Assembly (NCBI GenBank): GCA_964016885.1
Contig: OZ024740.1
Span: forward strand, 261,206,001-261,270,000
Direction of reading: 5' to 3'
DNA length: 64,000 bases
Origin: Eledone cirrhosa
Lineage: Eukaryota
Shown here: one piece after another, positions 12,371-64,000 of the stretch
Numbering within the stretch: the stretch's first letter is position 1
How the letters are laid out: every line of letters starts with the position of its first letter
Position numbers and translations under genes: made by a program
The notes under the pieces: model-generated
Told to the model about the DNA's origin: nothing
The model's input: the letters and a program-made list of their open reading frames with translations, nothing else
The model's database searches: none

Positions 12371-12403
12371 CCATAAATTATATAATAACATGGGTTAGAC
12401 GAA

Positions 12404-12600
<197 letters not shown>

Positions 12601-12697
12601 AAGTTCGTCTGTGGCCGTAGTGGTAGGTGTGGAGGCAGTAGAGGGGCTGGTCTGGGGTTCAATCTCAGTCACGAATCTCTCGAAAAATTTTATTTTG

Positions 12698-19261: not shown

Positions 19262-19280
19262 TAAAACTGATCTATATTAT

Positions 19281-19343
19281 ATTTTATCTGATGAAAGCAC
19301 ACCATAATTTAACTTGGTGTCCTTGAAATATGTATAATGAAAT
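19281..19343 (+). ncRNA. Minimal type-I hammerhead ribozyme motif
   Basis: attttat-CTGATGA-aagcacacca..tggtgtcctt-GAAA-tatgta-TA-atgaaat: stems I, II and III, followed by AATAAA. Sits between (TA)n tracts. Confidence 0.65.
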
Positions 19344-19384
19344 AAATATGGTTTTATAAATATAATTTCCATTTGTTAATATCG

Positions 19385-26098: not shown

Positions 26099-28700
26099 TA
26101 ACAGATTAAAGTTTAAGCAAAGAATCGCTGCTTTCACGCTTAACGGGATCTTCTGAAACTAAAAAGTCAATCTATGAACGCAGAAATAAATATTTCAAAA
26201 CCGTTGCAGCCGGAGGAAAACAGGAAGACCATACTTTGGTTCGTGGAAACGTTCCCTGGCAAAGAACGGGAAAAAACGAAGATAATGCGTCATTATTTGG
26301 AGTGGTGAAAAGCAATTAATTACACGCAAAGACAAAACCACGTTTATGGTATAAAAGAAGTCGTAGACTAATATTCTATTAGGTGGTTCATGGCGACGTT
26401 CTCTGGCAATGAACGGACAAAACGAAGATAATACGTCATTATGTGGAACGCGGAGAACGATTGCACGCAAAGACAAAACCAACCACGTAAATGGTATAAC
26501 TGAAGTCGTAGACTAAAATTCTAACTAGGAAACCGAATGATTCTCGGCATCAGAGTTAAGAATAAAGTAAATAAAATACAGAGGTAATTGAAATTAAATA
26601 AATACATACACGCATCAATATACGTACATACACAAGCATACGCGAAAACATTCGCCATAGGTATACAAATACAAGCACGTACACAAAAAAAACCCGCACG
26701 CACATACAGAACCCACGCAACGCCTGTACCCGCACACATACGAATGTATACACCAAATACACATTAAAATATATATATATAAAAAAGATATATGTGTGTG
26801 TGTGTGCGTGTATGCATATAATTAAAAAACGTATATAAATAAATAAATAAGTATATAACGCGTGCACACACATACCTACATGTAAATACACATATGTTCG
26901 GAGACGTACGTCAACCAAAACACAAAGTACACTTATACACACACCCTACATACGTACGAACCCGCATACTCACACAGATGCAAAACTCCTGTATACACAT
27001 AACCAAATGCATATGTACCAGAATATATAATATATACGCCATAACATATACAATCAAATATACGTACGAGAAAGTATACGTACCTTCACGAAAAATACAA
27101 GTAATATATACTTACCTATACAAATAAGTAATGGTATAACATATACTTAGCTACCACATCAAGACGTAAAATATCCGCGTATAGTTCGTACTATCCGTTA
27201 GGGTATAATGTGGGGCTGTAATACAGGAAAGTTTTGTGCAATTTATGTTTACAAGCAAAAATTGCCTCAGATTTTTTGTTTAAGATGTGGTCTTTGGCGT
27301 AGAGTATTTCCAGAGCCTCAGCGGCGCAGAGGTCACATGGTCTTTTATTTCCGTTATACGATCTAGCCCCTAGCTAGGATCGCCTAGTGTAACTTATATT
27401 GGGTGTGGTTATCTTTTAGACTCCAGATATAAGCTGAAAGTGACGTCATATTCCTTCTTAAAGGGTTAAGAAAAGAATGGGTATGCATGTAAAGACGCTG
27501 CTTGAATCTATTGGCGGTTAACCCTATGTAGGCCCTACGGGACGTCGGTGTTTCAACCTTGCATTTGTAAACAATGTTACTAGCGAGGCATTTCCCGGAT
27601 AGGGGGCAGTCAACCAATTCCTACAATTACAGTTAGTACTAGCTACAGGGTTGCACGTGTTCCTACGGCTAGGTAGTTTAGCTAAATTTGAAGCTGTGAT
27701 GTTATGTGCAAGGTTAGGAGTCGTAGAGTAAGACATTTTAATGGTATTTCTATTAAAAATTTTACTATATTTATGTGTTGGGGGAAAATGCTTCATAATA
27801 AGGGAGAGAAAGATCTTAGCTAATGGTGTGGCCACCTCCATATTATATGGTGGGTTATACCATATAATGCGTCGGGATCTATTTTTTCTAGGTCTATACT
27901 CGTACTCTCTATATGCTACATTATCGACAAATCCACTCCGAACAAGAGCTTCATTATAATATGTGGAATGGTCGTTGAAAATATGCTCGTTAGTAGATAG
28001 ACGGGAAAGCCTCAATGAATCGTTTCTTACCAGGTTCTTGGTTATGCTGGCAGGATGGTTAGAATGCTTGCTTATGTAATTAAGCGTATCATTCGGCTTT
28101 CTATACGGGTAGTGCAAGCCATTTGACAAATTGAGGGTAACGTCGATGTAATTAACGACTGAGAGGTTGGCCTCAACCTGTATGGAGAGGTTGAAGCCTT
28201 TAAAGAAGGCTGTGAGTTCTTTTCTGAACCTGTCGCAAGCACGTGGGCCGCACTTTGTCATGGTCAAAAGACTATCATCACGATACAAACCACCGCCCAC
28301 GTTGGGGGAATTCTTCCTTGATAGAGAAAAGAATGAAAAAACCGATAAGATCAGTAACCTCCGCAGAATCGCTGGCGCCCATACTCACGTCGAATAGGGT
28401 ACTATTAGATTTTTTAATCCAAATAGAGTCGTCGAAATTAATCACCGACTTGCGGGCATTTAGGATGACATCAACTTAGAAATCCTTAACCACTGTGAGT
28501 GTTTTAGCGAAATTGATAGCTCTAAGGAGAAGTCGTAAAGTGATGGAGGAGAGTAATTATTGATGTCGAATTGGATAAAACGGCAATGTTCCTTGTTGCA
28601 TATGCCGTTGAACCAATCAATCACCGCGAAAGAATTGTTCCACAGTGCAAGAGGGGCCAAACTTCTAATTTCAGGTATAATTCTATCTAAAATCCTTTTT
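26093..28700 (-). mobile_element. Penelope-like element, second lineage (YRDD RT + C-terminal YIG endonuclease; possibly Hydra clade)
   Basis: FIQFDINNY, GASDSAEVTDL, GGLYRDD, YRKPNDTLNYISKHSNHP, IIWYNPPY, CNCR..CPLSGKCL..IVYKC..YIGLTANRFKQR, CDLC. The long 3' region carries a ~150 bp internal repeat (26230-26520). Confidence 0.85.
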
Positions 28701-29882: not shown

Positions 29883-30009
29883 TTTGAATAAATAATGAAT
29901 GAATATTACATAATTTATGTACTAAATTTTGCAACACTTGATTAAACATTCTGCTCCTTCCACCCCTCCCTCCACTTCACCACCTCTATCTCCACCACCC
30001 ACGTCTACT

Positions 30010-30920
30010 TCTTAGACATCTCCATCGCCATCGACCCCTCCCACCGCTCCCACGTCACCTCCGCCTTCTTCAAACCCACCGACTCTCACTCCTACCTCGA
30101 CTTCACCTCCTCCCACCCTACACACACTAAACACTCCATTCCCTACTCCCAACTCCTCCGGATCCGCCGCCTCTGCAGCCGAGATGCTGACTTTGAGTCC
30201 CAAGCCCTTTCCCTAGTCAGCCATTTCATCCGGCGAGGTCCCCCCCCCCTCGTTCACACCGCCCTCACTCGCGCCCGTGCTGTCCACCGCTCTACCGCCC
30301 TCACCCCACGCCACTGCACACCCACCCACCGTCTCCCCTTCCTCATCACCTACCACACATCCACCTTACGCCTCCACCGCACCATCCTTCGCCTCTTCCG
30401 ACGCCTCCAGTCCGACCCCTCCACTTCCCCCATCTTCCCATCCACACCCCTCCCCTCCTTCAAACGCGCACGCAATCTCCGCACCCTCCTCGTCCACAGC
30501 TCCCTACCCCCCCCCCCCAATCCACGCTCTTCTCCGCCCCACGGTTCACTTCCCTGCTCGAGGCCTCGTTGACACACCTGCCCCACATCACCAACACCAC
30601 CACCTTCAGCCTTCCCCGCTTCGACCCCTCCGCCTCCCTCTCCCAACTCCACCCTCCACCACCCTTACACGCCTCACACCCTTCCAGCACTTGTTCATCT
30701 TATTGCTTATTCTTATGTTTATTTTTACGTTTATTTTTATTTTTATTTATCCTAAATGTATTTCCACACCCCCTCAGAACTCTCTTCCTAACCTATTTAC
30801 TCCTGAAGAAGGGCTTATGCCCGAAACGCCCCCCCCCCCCCCCTCCACACTCTCAAGAGCGTAAACCTAATAAACCTTTATTTGTCTGCCTCTCTGTTTT
30901 GTTCCCGTCTAAATTTGCAC
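30010..30920 (+). mobile_element. Penelope-like element, third lineage (Neptune-like, C-rich), 3' part
   Basis: FLDISI..FKPTDSHSYLDFTSSHPTHTKHSIPYSQLLRIRRLCS, PFLITYH, SFKRARNLRTLLVHS; 3' hammerhead core and AATAAA. Confidence 0.85.
30796..30828 (+). ncRNA. PLE hammerhead core (3' side disrupted by a C-run)
   Basis: CTGAAGA-a-gggc ttat gccc-GAAACG. Confidence 0.55.
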
Positions 30921-30943
<23 letters not shown>

Positions 30944-30953
<10 letters not shown>

Positions 30954-31271
30954 AGATCAAAAGATGGTTAAAGGAGTTCCATGTATTTTATTATGCGCAT
31001 TTCAAAAACAAACATCATCATGCAATAATATTTGTGTTTTCATCAGATAAAACAGGAGAACATGATATGAAGGCTAAAAAACACTTGTGGATAGTGCAGT
31101 TTTAAATCAACAAAACTGCACTATCCACAAGTGTTTTTTAGCCTTCATATCATGTTCTCCTGTTTTATCTGATGAAAACACAAATATTATTGCATGATGA
31201 TGTTTGTTTTTGAAATGCGCATAATAAAATACATGGAACTCCTTTAACCATCTTTTGATCTTATATATTAT
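30944..31271. repeat. Apparently perfect fold-back (~160 bp arms, 8 nt loop)
   Basis: The arms read as exact reverse complements by eye; the ORF track shows the same peptide on both strands. Confidence 0.95.
31163..31229 (+). ncRNA. Minimal type-I hammerhead ribozyme (mirror copy on - strand at 30986-31052)
   Basis: ttttat-CTGATGA-aaacacaaatattatt gcat gatgatgtttgttttt-GAAA-TGCGCA-TA-ataaaa: intact core, stem I, long stem II and palindromic stem III. Confidence 0.75.
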
Positions 31272-31409
31272 GTATACTCCAGTCCTACAAACTGTAGAGT
31301 GCTTCTTATTCGATATCTGCATTGCTTTATTGTACTACAATAAAACTCACCTCCTACACATATATATATATATAGTGCAAATTTAGACGGGAACAAAACA
31401 GCATATGAA

Positions 31410-31519
<110 letters not shown>

Positions 31520-31789
31520 TTCATATGCCTCAGCTGTACATTGTGCTGCTACCACTGTTGTTATAACTATCTCATACTACTCCCTCTCTCTCTATGTCTG
31601 ATGTAGGAAATAGCAGACAATCATACATTTATATGAACGAATATATAAATATATTCATGCAAAAACAGACACACTTACAAAAATATATACTTACAGCCAT
31701 TCATTCACACATTAAGTGGTAATAGGTATGCTATATTTTTATCGCTATATCACATCGCTTATATATCATCTTATAATATATAACCAGCA

Positions 31790-51866: not shown

Positions 51867-52309
51867 TTTGTTGGTTCACCACTGGATAGAATTGGTCATT
51901 CCGTATGGTCAATCTTGATGTAATATTATGGAGAGTAATCAACGTAGTGCAGTTCATCCGTCTTCGTTTGTATAGTTGGTGGTGCTAATACGAAGTTAAT
52001 TATTATAAATAAAATAACAGGAGGCAGGACTGGTGTAAATCCTTGAAAGGTTTATTATACTATGATCATTTCAATTACCGGGTTCCGTATAAATCCGGTG
52101 ATATCATCAGGTATTCGAAATATAACAAAGGAATATATAAAATCCATGGGTCCGAAATCAGAGACAGAGAGGACGACTGATCAACTAGCTGCTTTCACCT
52201 CGGTCAGTCGCCCTTAAGTGATGGCAACTCGGTCTACTAATGACCATCTGGTGAGGGGGTCGAAGGCTTATAATGTACTACCACCTCTCCGTCAGAGAAG
52301 GAAAAAAGA

Positions 52310-52350
<41 letters not shown>

Positions 52351-52680
52351 AGAAAAGTCAGAGTAAGGGTCATGCTAGAAGACACCGCGAAAAATGTTAT
52401 TCTAAAGAACCCATATTTTAACAAAGGCATATATATGGGTGTGACCGATTGACGCTCTTGTTGGTGAATTGATTTTTTGGGTGGGGCTGTTTGCTTTGAT
52501 TGTATATTTTTGTGTATTTTATTTATAAGGTTCCTACCAACTTTCAATTGGTTATATGTATGTATTTCTATCTTCCTGGTTTTTTATTGCCTTATCTATT
52601 TTTCTATTATCTATAATCTATATCTGTCTCTATATTGGTACACCACTAAAACACATGTGTACACCATCTGTTAATTTGCA
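51865..52680 (-). mobile_element. Non-coding hammerhead-bearing element (retrozyme- or pLTR-like)
   Basis: Starts at (TA)n; 51865-52120 is homologous to 54850-55115; no credible ORF. Confidence 0.5.
52057..52114 (-). ncRNA. Minimal type-I hammerhead ribozyme (duplicate at 59598-59655)
   Basis: atac-CTGATGA-tatcaccggattt..aacccggtaatt-GAAA-TGATCA-TA-gtat. Confidence 0.7.
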
Positions 52681-52784
52681 TTGATACACACTCACTCTCA
52701 CACTCACTCTCTCACACACACACACACACGCGCACACACACACACATACATACATATATACATATATACATACATATAGGTCTA

Positions 52785-54210
52785 TAATCTAAAGGTCTTA
52801 AAGTCAACCTGGCAAAGACCAAAGTCCTAGAATGTAGAAAGAATAACAGCCCAGATTTACTCAGGGTAATGGCCATGCTCAGTGTGCAGGAAATGCAAAC
52901 TATGGGTACACAAGAGATGTACTGAGATCTGAGGTAGGCTGGCAAAGAATGCAGGTTTTATATGTGGTTGTTGCACTGATGCAGTCAGTAGCAACAGCCC
53001 ACAGGATACTAACTCCTTTAAATGCCTAGAGGGCTGGGTAGAAGTAGTTGATAGTTTCTGTTACCTGGGAGACCAAATTAACAGTGGAGCTGAATGTTCC
53101 AAAAGCACCTCAGCTATAATGAGAATGGGATAGAGGAAGTTCAGGGAGCAACTTCCGCTACTAGCCACAAAAGGTTTTTCCTTCAAAATAAAGGGCAGAT
53201 TGTGTGATGAGTGTATATGAACAGCAATGTTGTATAGCAGTGAGACCTGGGCACTGTGTGCAGAGGACCTGCAAAGAATGGAAAGAAATGAAGCTTCCAT
53301 GCTTCAATGGATGTGTAATAGTAATATACATGAATGACAAAGCATAAATGAATTGAGAGAGAAACTGGGTTTATGAGGAGTCAAATCCCATGTGCAGGAG
53401 AGGAGAATGTGCTGGTATGGATATGTGATGCGTACAAAAAATGACAGCTGTATAAAGAGGTGCAGGGGGCTCAAGCTTGATGGAAGCCTTGGTGTACAAA
53501 GATTTAGGAAGAATTAGGATGAGGTAATAAAAGCTGACCTTGCACAATTGCACTTCTCAAAGGCGATGACATGGGATTGAAATCTCTGGCATTAAAGAGA
53601 GTCGGACGCCATGCTTTCACGCATAGAGTTACGGCCGTTGCCATTCTGAGTTCAAATCCCGCCGAGGTTAACTTTGCCTTTCATCCTTACGGAGTCGATA
53701 AAATAAAGTACCAGTAATGTACTGGGTAATTGCTGGCCTTGTGCCAATAGTAGAAACAATTATAAAGTAATACAGAAGACTCGTCTTCCCATGTGCATGG
53801 GTTGAAGCATACATCTTGTATGCACTACCTTTCCCCTCTCTCTTCCATACGCCTCCAAGTCATAACACTCCACTCATGCCTCAACACCTTACCATCTCAC
53901 ACACACATCTAGATCTACCTCTCCAATCCCCCCCCCCTCCCAAGTTCCCAGCCCACAATGTAAAGTAGTTGTGATGGCGACAGCGCCTAGCCCACACTGT
54001 AAAGTGGCCATGTAGGTGTCATGACAAAGCACCCAGCTCACACTATAAAATGGTTGTGTAGGTGTCATGCAAAAAGCATACACTGCAAATGTGGTTGGTG
54101 TTGGGAAGGGTATCCAGCTGTAGAAACCAAGCGAAAACCAGTCCTTTATGAGCAAGACATGATCATCTGACGTGGCGTGTCTCACAATGAGGTGACTCAT
54201 CTACCCATAG
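52785..54210 (+). mobile_element. RTE LINE 3' half (Meta-UTR subfamily), decayed, with a SINE A at 53596-53762
   Basis: GLKVNLAKTKVL, VDSFCYLG, SETWAL; UTR repeats and ttgggaagggtatccagctgtagaaa. Duplicate at ~60347-61772. Confidence 0.8.
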
Positions 54211-54368
54211 TTTGCATTTGGGACTGAGGATAGCAAACAACCATAGCCATTTTTAATCATCCCAAATATTTTCAGATTTACCATCCATTATCAAGGTGAG
54301 TTCATAGAGGGACTTCAGAGAGAAACCTGAGAAATGTCATAAATGCTTGTTCAATTTAGTTTTTAATC

Positions 54369-54403
<35 letters not shown>

Positions 54404-54410
<7 letters not shown>

Positions 54411-54710
54411 AAAAAGAGATGAAATCGAAATGCAACTGGAGTCTTATTTTTTTTTAAATATATATATTTATTTGGTTCCTTTACCGGTTTCGCAGTTCTT
54501 CTGCTTTTCAAAAGGTGAGTTGAGATGGAGGGTCTGTGGTTTTTCTCACATCTGTTCACATGTGAGAAAAACCACAGACCCTCCATCTCAACTCACCTTT
54601 TGAAAAGCAGAAGAACTGCGAAACCGGTAAAGGAACCAAATAAATATATATATATATTTTTTTAAATAAGACTCCAGTTGCATTTTCGATTTCATCTCTT
54701 TTTCTTTATA
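54404..54710. repeat. Fold-back (~148 bp arms) between (TA)n tracts; duplicate at 61988-62295
   Basis: Arms are reverse complements apart from homopolymer and TA slippage; loop ctgttcac. Confidence 0.95.
54596..54633 (+). ncRNA. Minimal hammerhead with U3-A8 variant core (mirror on - strand at 54478-54515)
   Basis: cctt-TTGAAAA-gcag aagaa ctgc-GAAA-ccgg-TA-aagg, then AATAAA. Confidence 0.65.
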
Positions 54711-54765
54711 CTTTCACTCGTGTAGGACACCTCGGTTATTTTTCATTTTGTAAAAAAAACCTCAC

Positions 54766-54830
<65 letters not shown>

Positions 54831-54849
54831 TATATATATATACATTTAA

Positions 54850-55684
54850 GTGTGGTGGTTCACAATGGGTAGAACTGGTCATTCCGTATAGCCAACCATG
54901 ATGTAATATTAGGAAAAGCACTCAACGTTATGCAATTCATCCATCTTTGACGTTAAATCTTGTTGGTGGTGCGAGAATGGAGTTAATTATTATTGAGTAA
55001 AATGACAGGAGGCCGGACTGGTGAAATTCCTTCAAAGATTTATTATAGCAAACACTATATACATTTCAGTGGTCAAGTTCCAGAAGATCCTGGTGACATC
55101 ATCTGGTGTTTATTGCATAATAGTTATATAATAACGGAATCATTATAACTAATAACTGTCTGGCATACGTTGCTTCACCGGCCAACTGTACTGACTCTTC
55201 TGGTCATGTGGGGCATGAGCCGGTGGACGTTTCATATAATAAAAATAATAGAAATAATAGAAATAATAGAAATATTTCCCAACTGAACATATTTCTCTGT
55301 AACCTGATCTCCTTTACCACTAGCATGTGTCTAAATAGCAGTGAATTGCAGGGTAGTAGTATTAAGCATACTAAGCATACAACCCCCTGACCAAACCGGT
55401 AAGACAAAATTGATGAGAATCCACACTCGCAGGTGGTCAGCCAAACAGACAACAACTGGCCCTCTTCATTGCCTTCGAGGCAAAAGCATTTTTCTTTTCT
55501 TTTTATAGTCTCTTGGATTGTGTTTACCATTAGTCCTTTATTATATAACTATTATGAAATAAACACCTGATGATGTCACCGGGATCTTACATAACTTGTC
55601 CACTGAAATGTATATAGTGTTTGCTATATTAAATCTTTGAAGGAATTTCACCAGTCTGGCCTTCTGTCATTTTACTCAATAATA
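54850..55684. mobile_element. Hammerhead element with ~150 bp inverted ends and ~400 bp spacer; duplicate at ~62431-63265
   Basis: 54989-55138 mirrors 55534-55684; (TA)n on both sides. Confidence 0.7.
55561..55622 (+). ncRNA. Minimal type-I hammerhead ribozyme (duplicate at 63142-63203)
   Basis: aaacac-CTGATGA-...-GAAA-tgtata-TA-gtgttt with a perfect 6 bp stem I. The mirror copy at 55050-55111 has a mutated core (CAGATGA). Confidence 0.7.
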
Positions 55685-55695
55685 TATATATATAT

Positions 55696-57885
55696 ATCAT
55701 CACCATCATCATTTTACGTCCGCTTTTCCCTGCTTGCAAGGGTTGGATGGGTCCTATTCAGCACAGCAACTCTCCACCGGTCACGGTCCTTCATCATCTC
55801 CTCCGTGAGTTTCAGCGATCTGAGGTCTGCTCTCACCACATCCGCCCATGTTTTTCGTGGTCTACCTTTACTGTGTCTTCCCTCCACTGGGACTTCCTGG
55901 CACTTCTTCACCCATTGGTCATCCTCCATGCACATCACATGTCCACACCATCTCAGCCGTCTCTCCTTCACACCACAACTTATCCCTCTTATACCCAGTT
56001 TCTTTCTCATCTCATGCTTGGTCGTTCATGCACATTGACATTTCACATCCAACGGAGCAAACTTGCTTCATTTCTCTCCAGCCGTCACATATCTTCTGCA
56101 GTTGCTGCCCATGTCTGACTACTATTCAACATCGCGCATCTCACACAGGCATCATATAACCGTCCTTTCATACGCAGGGAGAAACCCTTCTTTGTCAACA
56201 GAGGGAGCAGTTCACTAAACTTCTTCCAACCCGTCCTTATTCTAGATACTATGGCCTCGGAACAACCCCCTCCCACGCTAATCTGATCACCTAGGTACCA
56301 GAAGCTATAGCACCCATCTGCATTGGAAAAATGAGTCTATCACTGCGATTACTACTGTCAACTTTCCCTGTACATCTACTGCATACGTAGTTTTCCCTAC
56401 CTGTTAGTTTGCCTGATATCCCACTACATCTCTTGTGTACCCAAGATCTGCATTGCGTACATTTTATGGAATTTATGCCAGTTCCTTTCCTACATATCGA
56501 ACATGGCCATTTTCCTGATGGAATCAGAGTATTGTCCTCTCTTCTACTTATCAACGCCTTTGTTTTAGCTATGTTCACTCTCAGGCCTCTTGATTGCAAC
56601 TGCTGTTTCCATAGCCAGATTTTATTCTCTAGCTCCTCTACTGATTCTGCTATAAGAACCAGATCATCAGCATAAAGAAGTTCCCATGGGTATCCAGTCT
56701 TAAACGCCTCCATTATGGCTTGGAGGACTATAATGAACAAGAGTGAGCTGAGGACAGAACCTTGATATACACCTACTTGTATCTGGAATTCTTCACTAAA
56801 CTCCATTCCTATTCTCACTTTACTGACAACACCCCTGTACATAGCTTGCACTGTCCTCACAAGCCATTCCTCTACCCCTAGTTTCCTTAGGGACCACCAG
56901 ATGACAGATCGGGTACCCTATCAAAGGCCTTCTCTAGGTCAACAAAAGCTAAGTATAGTGGCTTATTCTTCTCTAAGAACCTCTCTTGTAGTTGCCTCAC
57001 TATGAAGAGGGCATCTGTTGTACTTTTCCGAGGCACAAAATCAATCTGCATCTCATCTAAATTGACCCTTTCTCTAATCAGTTGCGCTAATATTCTCTCT
57101 GCCACTTTCATAACCTGATACATCAGCTTTATGCCCCTATAAATGCTCCTCTCCCGAGCATCCCTTTACCTTTGTAGCAATTTATGAGAATACTGCTGCA
57201 CCAATCTTTGGGTATGACACCGCCATATATAGCCTGATTGATGATGCGTGCAACCAGTTTAGTGCCTACATCCCCTGTTGCCTTCAGCATCTCAGCAACT
57301 ATCCCTGACGGTCCAGCGGCCTTACCATTTTTCATTTCCTTAATCGCCTCATGGACCCTATATTCGTCAATCTCAATAGCTGATCCTTCTGTCGGATCTA
57401 CTGGGGGTTATTTCTCTCTCTCTCCCATTCGTTCTCCACATTCATCAGTCCCTCATAATGACATTTCCAGGCCTCCTTCTTTTGATCATTCGTGACACTA
57501 AGTACATCGGCATCATTCCAGACACACTTATCTCCAACAACATCCTGATTTACACCTACACACTGCCTTGCAATGCGGAACACCGCACGTCTCTGATCTT
57601 CCCGTCGCAGAACATTGGCAAACCTCCTACTCTCAGCCTCCCTGCGTGCTAAGTACATCTGACATCTAGCTTCTCTCTTAGTGGCTGTGTATCCGTCTCT
57701 ACTCCCATCATTTTTCCAAGCTTTCCATGCCAGTCTTTTGTCTCTAATGGCCCTATCTGCTGTGCTGTTCCACCACCAGGTCACTCTCTGTCTGGTGGAA
57801 GCTCTGCCCCAACCACAGTAGCCTGCAGTAAGTTGTCACGCAAGAAATTCCAGTTATCATCTATGTCATACAACTCTAAATCGTG
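55696..57885 (-). mobile_element. RTE LINE (5'-truncated) with PHD-like insert; partial duplicate at 63277-64000
   Basis: MTWWWN, KNGKAAGPSGI, AFVDLEKAFDRVP, QGSVLS, LLYADDL, intact C4HC3 motif, RRLRWCGHVM, (GAT)n tail. Confidence 0.92.
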
Positions 57886-58659: not shown

Positions 58660-59099
58660 TATAGAGAGAGAGACTACTGCGTTAGTTCAGACCTAGCTGT
58701 CGAAACGGCCAGAGCTCAGCTGGTACAACCACAAACATACATTTAATAGGTCGGATAAAAAATCTTCCACTTCACTTTCACATTTGATTTGGAATTTAAA
58801 GGACAACAATATAGGCTATTCAAAATCTTGGGGAACGATTTCGAAAGCACCTGCATACCAAATAATTTTTTTAAACAAACTGTTAATCCTTTTTAAATTA
58901 ACGTAAATACAAGCTCTTCTTTCTTTCTCTTTCTTCTTCCTACACATACATATATCCTAATAATTATTTTAATCTACCTAGCGTCTAAAAATAACGTTTT
59001 TTTTTCAGCCCTATACCTCAAACTCATTTGCATACTCATCTTAATAATTTGAAATATTTGACTTTTCTTCTCTATCCCTTCTTTCATTTACTATCCAGG

Positions 59100-59579: not shown

Positions 59580-59850
59580 ATCCTTGAAAGGTTTATTATA
59601 CTATGATCATTTCAATTACCGGGTTCCGTATGAATCCGGTGATATCATCAGGTATTCGAAATATAACAAAGGAATATATAAAATCCATGGGTCCGAAATC
59701 AGAGACAGAGAGGACGACTGATCAACTAGCTGCTTTCACCTCGGTCAGTCGCCCTTAAGTGATGGCAACTCGGTCTACTAATGACCATCTGGTGAGGGGG
59801 TCGAAGGCTTATAATGTACTACCACCTCTCCGTCAGAGAAGGAAAAAAGA

Positions 59851-59895
<45 letters not shown>

Positions 59896-61927
59896 AAAGA
59901 AAGAAAGAAAGAAGAAAAGTCAGAGTAAGGGTCATGCTAGAAGACACCGCGAAAAATGTTATTCTAAAGAACCCATATTTTAACAAAGGCATATATATGG
60001 GTGTGACCGATTGACGCTCTTGTTGGTGAATTGATTTTTTGGGTGGGGCTGTTTGCTTTGATTGTATATTTTTGTGTATTTTATTTATAAGGTTCCTACC
60101 AACTTTCAATTGGTTATATGTATGTATTTCTATCTTCCTGGTTTTTTATTGCCTTATCTATTTTTCTATTATCTATAATCTATATCTGTCTCTATATTGG
60201 TACACCACTAAAACACATGTGTGCACCATCTGTTAATTTGCATTGATACACACTCACTCTCACACTCACTCTCTCACACACACACACACACGCGCACACA
60301 CACACACATACATACATATATACATATATACATACATATAGGTCTATAATCTAAAGGTCTTAAAGTCAACCTGGCAAAGACCAAAGTCCTAGAATGTAGA
60401 AAGAATAACAGCCCAGATTTACTCAGGGTAATGGCCATGCTCAGTGTGCAGGAAATGCAAACTATGGGTACACAAGAGATGTACTGAGATCTGAGGTAGG
60501 CTGGCAAAGAATGCAGGTTTTATATGTGGTTGTTGCACTGATGCAGTCAGTAGCAACAGCCCACAGGATACTAACTCCTTTAAATGCCTAGAGGGCTGGG
60601 TAGAAGTAGTTGATAGTTTCTGTTACCTGGGAGACCAAATTAACAGTGGAGCTGAATGTTCCAAAAGCACCTCAGCTATAATGAGAATGGGATAGAGGAA
60701 GTTCAGGGAGCAACTTCCGCTACTAGCCACAAAAGGTTTTTCCTTCAAAATAAAGGGCAGATTGTGTGATGAGTGTATATGAACAGCAATGTTGTATAGC
60801 AGTGAGACCTGGGCACTGTGTGCAGAGGACCTGCAAAGAATGGAAAGAAATGAAGCTTCCATGCTTCAATGGATGTGTAATAGTAATATACATGAATGAC
60901 AAAGCATAAATGAATTGAGAGAGAAACTGGGTTTATGAGGAGTCAAATCCCATGTGCAGGAGAGGAGAATGTGCTGGTATGGATATGTGATGCGTACAAA
61001 AAATGACAGCTGTATAAAGAGGTGCAGGGGGCTCAAGCTTGATGGAAGCCTTGGTGTACAAAGATTTAGGAAGAATTAGGATGAGGTAATAAAAGCTGAC
61101 CTTGCACAATTGCACTTCTCAAAGGCGATGACATGGGATTGAAATCTCTGGCATTAAAGAGAGTCGGACGCCATGCTTTCACGCATAGAGTTACGGCCGT
61201 TGCCATTCTGAGTTCAAATCCCGCCGAGGTTAACTTTGCCTTTCATCCTTACGGAGTCGATAAAATAAAGTACCAGTAATGTACTGGGTAATTGCTGGCC
61301 TTGTGCCAATAGTAGAAACAATTATAAAGTAATACAGAAGACTCGTCTTCCCATGTGCATGGGTTGAAGCATACATCTTGTATGCACTACCTTTCCCCTC
61401 TCTCTTCCATACGCCTCCAAGTCATAACACTCCACTCATGCCTCAACACCTTACCATCTCACACACACATCTAGATCTACCTCTCCAATCCCCCCCCCCT
61501 CCCAAGTTCCCAGCCCACAATGTAAAGTAGTTGTGATGGCGACAGCGCCTAGCCCACACTGTAAAGTGGCCATGTAGGTGTCATGACAAAGCACCCAGCT
61601 CACACTATAAAATGGTTGTGTAGGTGTCATGCAAAAAGCATACACTGCAAATGTGGTTGGTGTTGGGAAGGGTATCCAGCTGTAGAAACCAAGCGAAAAC
61701 CAGTCCTTTATGAGCAAGACATGATCATCTGACGTGGCGTGTCTCACAATGAGGTGACTCATCTACCCATAGTTTGCATTTGGGACTGAGGATAGCAAAC
61801 AACCATAGCCATTTTTAATCATCCCAAATATTTTCAGATTTACCATCCATTATCAAGGTGAGTTCATAGAGGGACTTCAGAGAGAAACCTGAGAAATGTC
61901 ATAAGTGCTTGTTCAATTTAGTTTTTA

Positions 61928-61994
<67 letters not shown>

Positions 61995-62350
61995 AAAAAG
62001 AGATGAAATCGAAATGCAACTGGAGTCTTATTTTTTTTAAAATATATATATTTATTTGGTTCCTTTACCGGTTTCGCAGTTCTTCTGCTTTTCAAAAGGT
62101 GAGTTGAGATGGAGGGTCTGTGGTTTTTTCTCACATCTGTTCACATGTGAGAAAAACCACAGACCCTCCATCTCAACTCACCTTTTGAAAAGCAGAAGAA
62201 CTGCGAAACCGGTAAAGGAACCAAATAAATATATATATATATTTTTTTAAATAAGACTCCAGTTGCATTTTCGATTTCATCTCTTTTTCTTTATACTTTC
62301 ACTCGTGTAGGACACCTCGGTTATTTTTCATTTTGTAAAAAAAACCTCAC

Positions 62351-62411
<61 letters not shown>

Positions 62412-64000
62412 TATATATATATACATTTAAGTGTGGTGGTTCACAATGGGTAGAACTGGTCATTCCGTATAGCCAACCATGATGTAATATTAGGAAAAGC
62501 ACTCAACGTTATGCAATTCATCCATCTTTGACGTTAAATCTTGTTGGTGGTGCGAGAATGGAGTTAATTATTATTGAGTAAAATGACAGGAGGCCGGACT
62601 GGTGAAATTCCTTCAAAGATTTATTATAGCAAACACTATGTACATTTCAGTGGTCAAGTTCCAGAAGATCCTGGTGACATCATCTGGTGTTTATTGCATA
62701 ATAGTTATATAATAACGGAATCATTATAACTAATAACTGTCTGGCATACGTTGCTTCACCGGCCAACTGTACTGACTCTTCTGGTCATGTGGGGCATGAG
62801 CCGGTGGACGTTTCATATAATAAAAATAATAGAAATAATAGAAATAATAGAAATATTTCCCAACTGAACATATTTCTCTGTAACCTGATCTCCTTTACCA
62901 CTAGCATGTGTCTAAATAGCAGTGAATTGCAGGGTAGTAGTATTAAGCATACTAAGCATACAACCCCCTGACCAAACCGGTAAGACAAAATTGATGAGAA
63001 TCCACACTCGCAGGTGGTCAGCCAAACAGACAACAACTGGCCCTCTTCATTGCCTTCGAGGCAAAAGCATTTTTCTTTTCTTTTTATAGTCTCTTGGATT
63101 GTGTTTACCATTAGTCCTTTATTATATAACTATTATGAAATAAACACCTGATGATGTCACCGGGATCTTACATAACTTGTCCACTGAAATGTATATAGTG
63201 TTTGCTATATTAAATCTTTGAAGGAATTTCACCAGTCTGGCCTTCTGTCATTTTACTCAATAATATATATATATATATCATCACCATCATCATTTTACGT
63301 CCGCTTTTCCCTGCTTGCAAGGGTTGGATGGGTCCTATTCAGCACAGCAACTCTCCACCGGTCACGGTCCTTCATCATCTCCTCCGTGAGTTTCAGCGAT
63401 CTGAGGTCTGCTCTCACCACATCCGCCCATGTTTTTCGTGGTCTACCTTTACTGTGTCTTCCCTCCACTGGGACTTCCTGGCACTTCTTCACCCATTGGT
63501 CATCCTCCATGCACATCACATGTCCACACCATCTCAGCCGTCTCTCCTTCACACCACAACTTATCCCTCTTATACCCAGTTTCTTTCTCATCTCATGCTT
63601 GGTCGTTCATGCACATTGACATTTCACATCCAACGGAGCAAACTTGCTTCATTTCTCTCCAGCCGTCACATATCTTCTGCAGTTGCTGCCCATGTCTGAC
63701 TACCATTCAACATCACGCATCTCACACAGGCATCATATAACCGTCCTTTCATACGCAGGGAGAAACCCTTCTTTGTCAACAGAGGGAGCAGTTCACTAAA
63801 CTTCTTCCAACCCGTCCTTATTCTAGATACTATGGCCTCGGAACAACCCCCTCCCACGCTAATCTGATCACCTAGGTACCAGAAGCTATAGCACCCATCT
63901 GCATTGGAAAAATGAGTCTATCACTGCGATTACTACTGTCAACTTTCCCTGTACATCTACTGCATACGTAGTTTTCCCTACCTGTTAGTTTGCCTGATAT
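59580..64000 (+). repeat. Segmental duplication, copy 2 (runs off window)
   Basis: Matches 52039 onward, with an offset of 7541 at the junction rising to 7581 through microsatellite length differences. Confidence 0.97.

Follow-up and report, generated by a model that had tools for sequence, protein, structure and literature searches.

The hairpin characterised here, within a 64 000 nt stretch of Eledone cirrhosa DNA (hereafter the window), is a stub of a Penelope-like element (PLE): the 5′ end of a Hydra-clade element, present as two head-to-head arms that have different fixed outer ends and lie within (TA)n, and likely produced by two separate target-primed reverse transcriptions of a capped, uncleaved RNA (a reading to which we give a probability of about 0.7). 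The locus represents the pLTR end of a Hydra-type element, has no coding sequence and is one of thousands of such stubs. The head-to-head inverted copy and the one-sided tail are known PLE features (in the available parts of PMC8557442 and PMC3846280); what is new is a sharp 5′ boundary, an extra G that occurs on either arm type, and partner arms that in some cases do not overlap, which together point to two separate target-primed cDNAs.

The locus itself is a 415-bp insertion without an ORF, set in a (TA)n tract (Table 1). A sequence-only reading of the window had described a perfect hairpin with arms of 160 bp carrying two intact, opposed hammerheads, and this holds: positions 30944–31103 and 31112–31271 are complementary at 160/160 positions, and the same core is found, pointing outwards, on each strand. 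The hairpin loop comprises 8 nt, AAATCAAC, and complementarity ends at position 161. Two corrections to that first description are required, in that the 8-nt loop is native element sequence of the left arm rather than a spacer, and that the right arm extends 87 nt past the hairpin, to 31358.

Table 1. Features of the hairpin locus (window positions)
Feature	Position	Strand	Remarks
(TA)n target, left	30921..30943	.	
Short (S) arm	30944..31112	-	Element +4 to ~+172 of the inferred transcript; ends at internal TA-rich site, the tail start; takes in the 8-nt loop and one A common to both arms
Mirror hammerhead copy	30984..31054	-	Core from 31046; predicted cut after 30992, minus strand
Head-to-head junction	31104..31112	.	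1-nt microhomology; the 5′ boundary common to the family is missed by 3 nt (S arm) and 12 nt (L arm)
Long (L) arm	31112..31358	+	Element +13 to +259; hammerhead plus 87-nt tail, to the family's fixed long end
Type I hammerhead	31161..31231	+	Core CUGAUGA 31169–31175 and GAAA 31212–31215; palindromic stem III 31215–31222; predicted cut after 31223
One-sided 87-nt tail	31272..31358	+	In full elements followed directly by an 84 nt leader and the ORF start
(TA)n target, right	31359..31374	.	
Inverted copy of left flank (30894–30920)	31375..31401	.	Past the right (TA)n

A PLE parent had been suggested from the sequence, and such an origin is borne out by the wider family, the unit leading into ORFs of about 800 aa. 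Each of the 40 scored places (out of 114 candidates) matches the 249 nt from 31112 at 92–100 % identity. Across the 3.0-Gb genome the hammerhead pattern occurs 22,339 + 22,027 = 44,366 times, in several related families (0 + 1 for the control), and the head-to-head centre pattern of the locus family at 1,972 places (0 for the control); since the latter pattern does not fit the studied locus itself, these 1,972 stubs are a lower bound. In one element (L019) the unit continues into an ORF, the start of which has 1,474 candidates, and 5/26 longer fetched stretches contain an open frame of 803–816 codons. The canonical hammerhead sits in the pLTR of this parent element, the unit measures ~3.5 kb from tail end to short end in two copies (L047 and L057), and nearly all terminal ends read adjoin (TA)n, with a few adjoining (CAT)n.

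The parent ORF, taken from a natural copy (P0001, 808 aa), harbours reverse transcriptase (RT) motifs, YRDD, RWI, a CxCX5C linker (CNCPVKNKC) and a C-terminal endonuclease-like region, in addition to CxxC (CNLC) and CxH (CLH). DKG is changed to DKT (HSDKTNN), and RWI occupies the place where RWK is expected, with RWK seen in one relative. Its 37 database relatives are 28–41 % identical, and the only named one is from argonaut. A Pfam analysis of the parent ORF and two relatives returned no family at E 0.05, and the domain names used here rest on motif comparison and on alignment by eye to the Hydra rows of the PMC8557442 supplement; both fit a Hydra-clade PLE as parent. In common with that clade (Craig et al. 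2021, PMC8557442; e.g. Hydra-1_Obim), the element has a single ORF with RT and a C-terminal region that, by eye, aligns with the GIY-YIG endonuclease (EN) of the clade, DKT, CxCX5C and CxxC/CxH near the C-terminus, a hammerhead within the pLTR and insertion at (TA)n, and segments of the ORF align by eye with the supplement. It differs in possessing RWI rather than RWK, in a unit of ~3.5 kb where PMC8557442 gives ‘generally <3 kb’ as a tendency, in belonging to a different family from Hydra-1_Obim (by hammerhead and N-terminus), and in a very high copy number, as judged from the 44,366 pattern matches of several families. Two other assignments were discarded: a Naiad element (N-terminal endonuclease, no canonical hammerhead) on account of the C-terminal endonuclease-like region and the hammerhead, and a non-LTR retrozyme on account of the opposed arms, the lack of a tandem array and the existence of an ORF-bearing parent.

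The outer ends of the arms are of two fixed kinds. Terminal copies stop at (TA)n either ~48 nt (short) or ~135 nt (long) past the ribozyme cut, and sister families display the same two end distances. Among 41 loci taken from the first 100 matches listed for the hammerhead pattern, and chosen by that pattern alone, 17 of the 19 divergent pairs combine one short and one long end; as for the exceptions, the long–long case (L104) is a pair of unrelated insertions separated by 3.9 kb, and in the short–short case (L120) other DNA interrupts one of the arms. When loci were instead chosen by tail or ORF, the short–long combination was present in 20/22, with 2 unscored. Separately, four long copies (L053, L058, L063 and L064) start at the short-end site and hence carry the tail 5′ of the ORF, preceded in one case (L063) by an inverted long-end piece of 15 nt, and an ACTC...GAGTGCTT motif near the tail start is common to otherwise dissimilar families.

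Arms of a pair have the same haplotype: per 122 nt they differ at 0.88 positions, compared with 5.98 for arms of different pairs. Identical arms are common (8/17 sampled pairs) because both derive from one source at insertion. For the same reason, only part of the earlier proposal that the event was ‘very recent or homogenised’ is retained: the copy is young, another genomic locus being 100 % identical to the long arm over 247 nt, its recent age accounts for the perfect arms, and homogenisation is not needed. Nor does the locus qualify as the best candidate for an active copy, given that it has no ORF, that identical arms are widespread and that its ribozyme cores would be buried in read-through RNA; it is not special within its family. 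Young copies of its subfamily at two other loci (L044 and L046) have in common a rearranged, partly duplicated 3′ UTR, and this subfamily possibly represents a distinct source that was active recently.

The 5′ side of the arms is equally sharply delimited. Genome-wide, 4,746 copies carry a non-native base directly before the A at +1, as against 173 when the boundary is set 8 nt further in (+9) as a control; this A is part of an initiator-like CA and precedes the ribozyme cut by 124 nt. At all 30 loci read at the boundary, native upstream sequence is missing, making these true junctions. A further 5,106 copies keep the upstream sequence, and here the base is C in 100/100 among the matches listed; at the boundary, counting by eye among 100 matches listed, the base at −1 is G in 44, T in 39 and A in 17. 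In two sister families the boundary again falls on the A of a CA, at ~115 and ~135 nt before the respective ribozyme cut, and G occupies −1 in 44 and 39 of 100 matches listed (likewise by eye), the boundaries of families B and C having been picked from few examples and the interior control covering the locus family alone. By locus, G occupies −1 in 30/70 against 69/461 at −3 to −10, counts in which some insertions appear twice, and in family B alone the figure is 5/20 loci read.

Hairpin centres display the same limit, with native upstream sequence entered by none of the first 50 listed. Sorted by eye, 20 of these form perfect palindromes in which the arms overlap by the 4 nt ATAT, in 6 the overlap is 2 nt and 7 take other forms; in the remaining 17, G lies directly 5′ of one arm's start, 2 of them having it on both arms. 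For 7 of the 17 the G is a single filler base that could also be the other arm's native C, and several boundary junctions have GATA in common between arms. The extra G is found on either arm type; the studied locus has none, and neither of its arms reaches +1. In L1 and SVA an untemplated G is interpreted as copied from the cap, and so identifies capped RNA (in the available part of PMC4859970), and the Penelope promoter is internal and of the initiator type (according to the accessible text of PMC2377424). From the DNA copies we infer that a capped RNA starts at this A; the G could alternatively stem from non-templated addition of C at any RNA end, or from a microhomology bias with the partner arm. 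A literature search, weak in that few subscription journals were covered, found no report of twin priming or of cap-derived G in PLEs. Short repeats of the first 8–20 nt of the RNA, often each with a G, are present at the junctions of five loci (L017, L022, L160, L187 and L203), suggestive of template jumps that recurred at the 5′ end.

Whether the two arms were made together or apart can be judged from how far they overlap. The 30 boundary loci represent 25 distinct insertions, of which 22 pair with an arm of the complementary type, 2 lack a partner and 1 has a broken one. In 9/25 the short arm runs from +1 and the long arm is cut back by at least 9 nt, with the reverse arrangement in 2. At three of these nine (L145, L153 and L165) the long arm lies wholly downstream of the short end, and at two loci outside this set (L042 and L044) each arm holds sequence that its partner is without. 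An account based on fold-back, in which cDNA or antisense RNA self-primes so that the second arm is a DNA copy of the first, with later central deletions giving the asymmetry, has a published precedent in a proposal that head-to-head PLE palindromes arise by self-priming from an antisense template (PMC3846280, available in part). It accommodates both the perfect palindromes at 20 of the first 50 centres listed and a haplotype always common to the two arms. However, an arm cannot be copied from sequence that its partner lacks, barring later deletion, and this argues against fold-back copying: short arms start at +1 with G where their long partners begin only at +179, +206 or +236, leaving nothing to copy; the two loci with private sequence on each arm pose the same difficulty; G stands on both arms at 2 of those 50 centres; and at the studied locus the short arm extends further 5′ (+4) than the long arm (+13). 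Asymmetric deletions at the centre of a palindrome after insertion could mimic independent arms. Overall we regard fold-back as unlikely, and the non-overlapping arms and cap-like G favour a sense template, arguing against the antisense self-priming advanced in the available part of PMC3846280.

Two separate target-primed reverse transcriptions would proceed from features read directly in the DNA, namely the family identity, the (TA)n target, the short and long ends, the common haplotype, the sharp 5′ boundary with its excess of G, and hammerheads left intact across the cut site. An internal promoter would start a capped RNA at the A of the initiator-like CA, and the element's endonuclease would cut both strands of (TA)n. 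Reverse transcription would then begin at the tail end on one strand and at the tail start on the other, each cDNA extending to or near the 5′ end of the RNA and often adding a C opposite the cap, before the cDNA ends join at microhomology, be it the self-complementary ATAT or another stretch, and gap filling follows. At the studied locus the two cDNAs would have halted 3 and 12 nt before the RNA 5′ end. These templates presumably escaped cutting by the hammerhead, which in read-through RNA of the locus would lie within duplex. That the template was uncleaved follows from the arms spanning the cut site intact and from only 76 copies possibly beginning there, a search that missed junctions to TA and in which 6 of 15 matches read proved to be 3-nt deletions in an otherwise present ribozyme; no 5′-end hot spot was seen at the cut. 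A more specific version, in which a probably dimeric protein primes both cut (TA)n strands on one capped, uncleaved sense RNA, one strand per tail end, with the cDNAs joined at their cap-marked ends, has in our estimation an even chance of being correct. The strict pairing of short with long ends is not explained by the two-priming model itself. In L1 twin priming, attributed to Ostertag and Kazazian (2001), both target strands reportedly prime cDNAs, and their joining at microhomology is said to yield an inversion; the L1 cDNAs copy different parts of the RNA, whereas here it is usually the same 170 nt, from fixed starts.

A template in the form of a small, ribozyme-made and retrozyme-like circle, copied from two fixed points, was also considered. 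Type I hammerheads with a palindromic stem III do form circles in tandem retrozymes (bioRxiv 10.64898/2026.07.22.740005, available in part). A circle has no 5′ end, yet approximately half of the copies with the boundary 20-mer stop at one base with an excess of G; moreover, there is no short tandem array at the locus, and long arms run on into the 3′ UTR and ORF of the full element. This makes copying from a circle very unlikely.

The hammerhead itself has the canonical composition reported from the sequence, on both strands (Table 1). The AUA cleavage triplet is present; stem I has the 6 bp described, all Watson–Crick, and reaches 8 with one G–U; the long stem II comprises 3 bp, a C·U mismatch and then ~12 bp; and the self-complementary stem III (UGCGCA) lies within a palindrome of 8 nt (A15.1-UGCGCA-U16.1). 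Stem covariation among genomic homologues occurs in stems II and III and across families: in 21 aligned copies from several families, 7/8 stem II pairs and 1/4 stem III self-pairs vary on both sides, and 95 % of cells are paired (0/500 shuffles as high; slid controls 36–56 %), for a set of related copies in which the core and much of stem I are fixed by the search pattern. CUGANGA, GAAA and U16.1 H17 are invariant in 21/21, although the pattern used for picking holds the core. The G10.1–C11.1 pair is replaced by A–U at the locus, the 21 copies having A–U in 13, G–U in 6 and G–C in 1. Stem III is fully self-complementary in 88/94 motifs, and its predicted self-duplex at the locus has 8 bp and −10.5 kcal/mol. 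Rfam at the gathering score gave no match in the window, folding of the hammerhead monomer was no more stable than that of shuffles (z −0.4 to −1.2), and the folding z-score of the tail yielded no signal. The ribozyme assignment is supported by core and covariation, which mark the predicted hammerhead as a conserved PLE motif, probably dependent on dimerisation or on protein.

Comparison with PLE type I hammerheads (Cervera and De la Pena 2014, PMC4209133, available in part) reveals the same core, unstable palindromic helix III, long helix II and covarying families. The suggestion of dimeric cleavage, as in PLE minimal hammerheads, is upheld insofar as the palindromic stem III matches the dimer-type motifs described there. 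It fails in that the motif is not a min-HHR, loop 3 being present as a 6-nt palindromic insert, and a tandem dimer within one RNA is impossible because the two ribozymes sit on opposite strands; A10.1–U11.1 in place of G–C, and an opposed rather than tandem arrangement, are further departures. Predicted folding of RNA read through both arms, from either strand, leaves every core base paired, and in RNA running only from the centre outwards the core is mostly open.

These properties bear on the idea of a retained functional unit, a twin ribozyme or dsRNA source with homogenised arms and cleavage active on both strands. The perfect arms, the intact cores and their mostly open state in centre-out RNA would suit such a unit, and hairpins of this kind would be expected to serve as substrates of a dsRNA pathway. 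Set against this are the identical arms of 8/17 pairs and the at least 1,972 similar hairpins, the full pairing of core bases in read-through RNA, the A10.1–U11.1 pair instead of the typical G–C, and the poor in vitro cleavage of PLE hammerheads, including the dimer type, in the available part of PMC4209133. A maintained function is thus even less probable than a circular template.

The existence of this exact locus rests on the assembly, whilst its architecture recurs at thousands of places; in the DNA contigs and RAD reads examined, no piece spans 30944–31358, and the junctions found there are at the level of the family. Even so, a fold-back read or assembly artefact is the least credible origin of the perfect hairpin, as the outer ends of the arms differ and are family-fixed, the centre is asymmetric, the same build recurs elsewhere with diverged arms, and short-read contigs contain the same kind of junction.

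The two-priming reading has its closest parallels amongst other PLEs. Penelope, the Adineta Pen families and Naiad, all with an inverted 5′-truncated pLTR, possess the same head-to-head inverted copy and palindromic junction with a tail on one arm; the tail is 87 nt here and 30–40 nt there, and the one-short-one-long rule and the fixed 5′ boundary with extra G are countable in the present family (compared with the available parts of PMC8557442 and PMC3846280). The anole PLE Poseidon_Ac nicks and extends both strands in vitro, from two RT start sites that bound the tail and without the need for ribozyme cleavage (Frangieh et al. 2024, PMC11167929, available in part). These two start sites, the AT-rich target and the extension of both strands correspond to what is seen here. 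In the accessible text of PMC11167929, by contrast, the hammerhead overlaps the ORF start and the start site has no strand preference, as opposed to a cut 218 nt upstream of the ATG and strictly complementary pairs in E. cirrhosa.

The hairpin locus is in itself of little weight, whilst its family provides a natural data set on the inverted ends and one-sided tails of PLEs. Among retroelements, PLEs are the nearest relatives of telomerase. Two-priming and self-priming models can be told apart by the cap-like G and by partner arms that do not overlap, and the stub family would supply exact start and end points of the RNA that are usable in vitro. With at least ~2,000 near-perfect hairpins of 170 bp, the genome may also contain a large potential source of dsRNA. 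If two-strand priming is correct, a single step would account for both the head-to-head pLTR and the one-sided tail in every endonuclease-bearing PLE, Hydra promoters would be mappable from DNA alone, and the idea of antisense self-priming would be overturned; the hammerhead would then be a switch that takes RNA out of transposition rather than preparing RNA for it.

Several other features were observed in the window. The (TA)n tracts at 12392–12613 and 31401–31529 are bordered by inverted repeats of ~10–12 bp, a pattern that, together with the 27-bp inverted flank at 31375–31401, may point to fold-back repair where (TA)n tracts end, though it was not general when tested. A regular inverted duplication of one flank at insertions was dropped as an explanation, with non-repetitive sequence in only 2/34 checked. 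Immediately before the hairpin, 29945–30920 (+) holds a 3′ fragment of a different, C-rich PLE, the frame of which resembles by eye the Neptune-type RT/thumb rows of the PMC8557442 supplement; it ends in a minimal hammerhead-like core (~30803–30827), followed by the (TA)n that the hairpin stub entered. A hammerhead of a sister Hydra family lies between two (TA)n tracts at 19278–19346 (+), with a stem III that is self-complementary via G–U, and Hydra-like ORF remains of other families, 34–50 % identical to P0001, occur at 27227–28699 (−) and 58664–58897 (+). Finally, 52039–56419 and 59580–64000 form a direct duplication of at least 4.4 kb with 98.8 % identity, ~7.5 kb apart, which reflects either tandem duplication or assembly redundancy.
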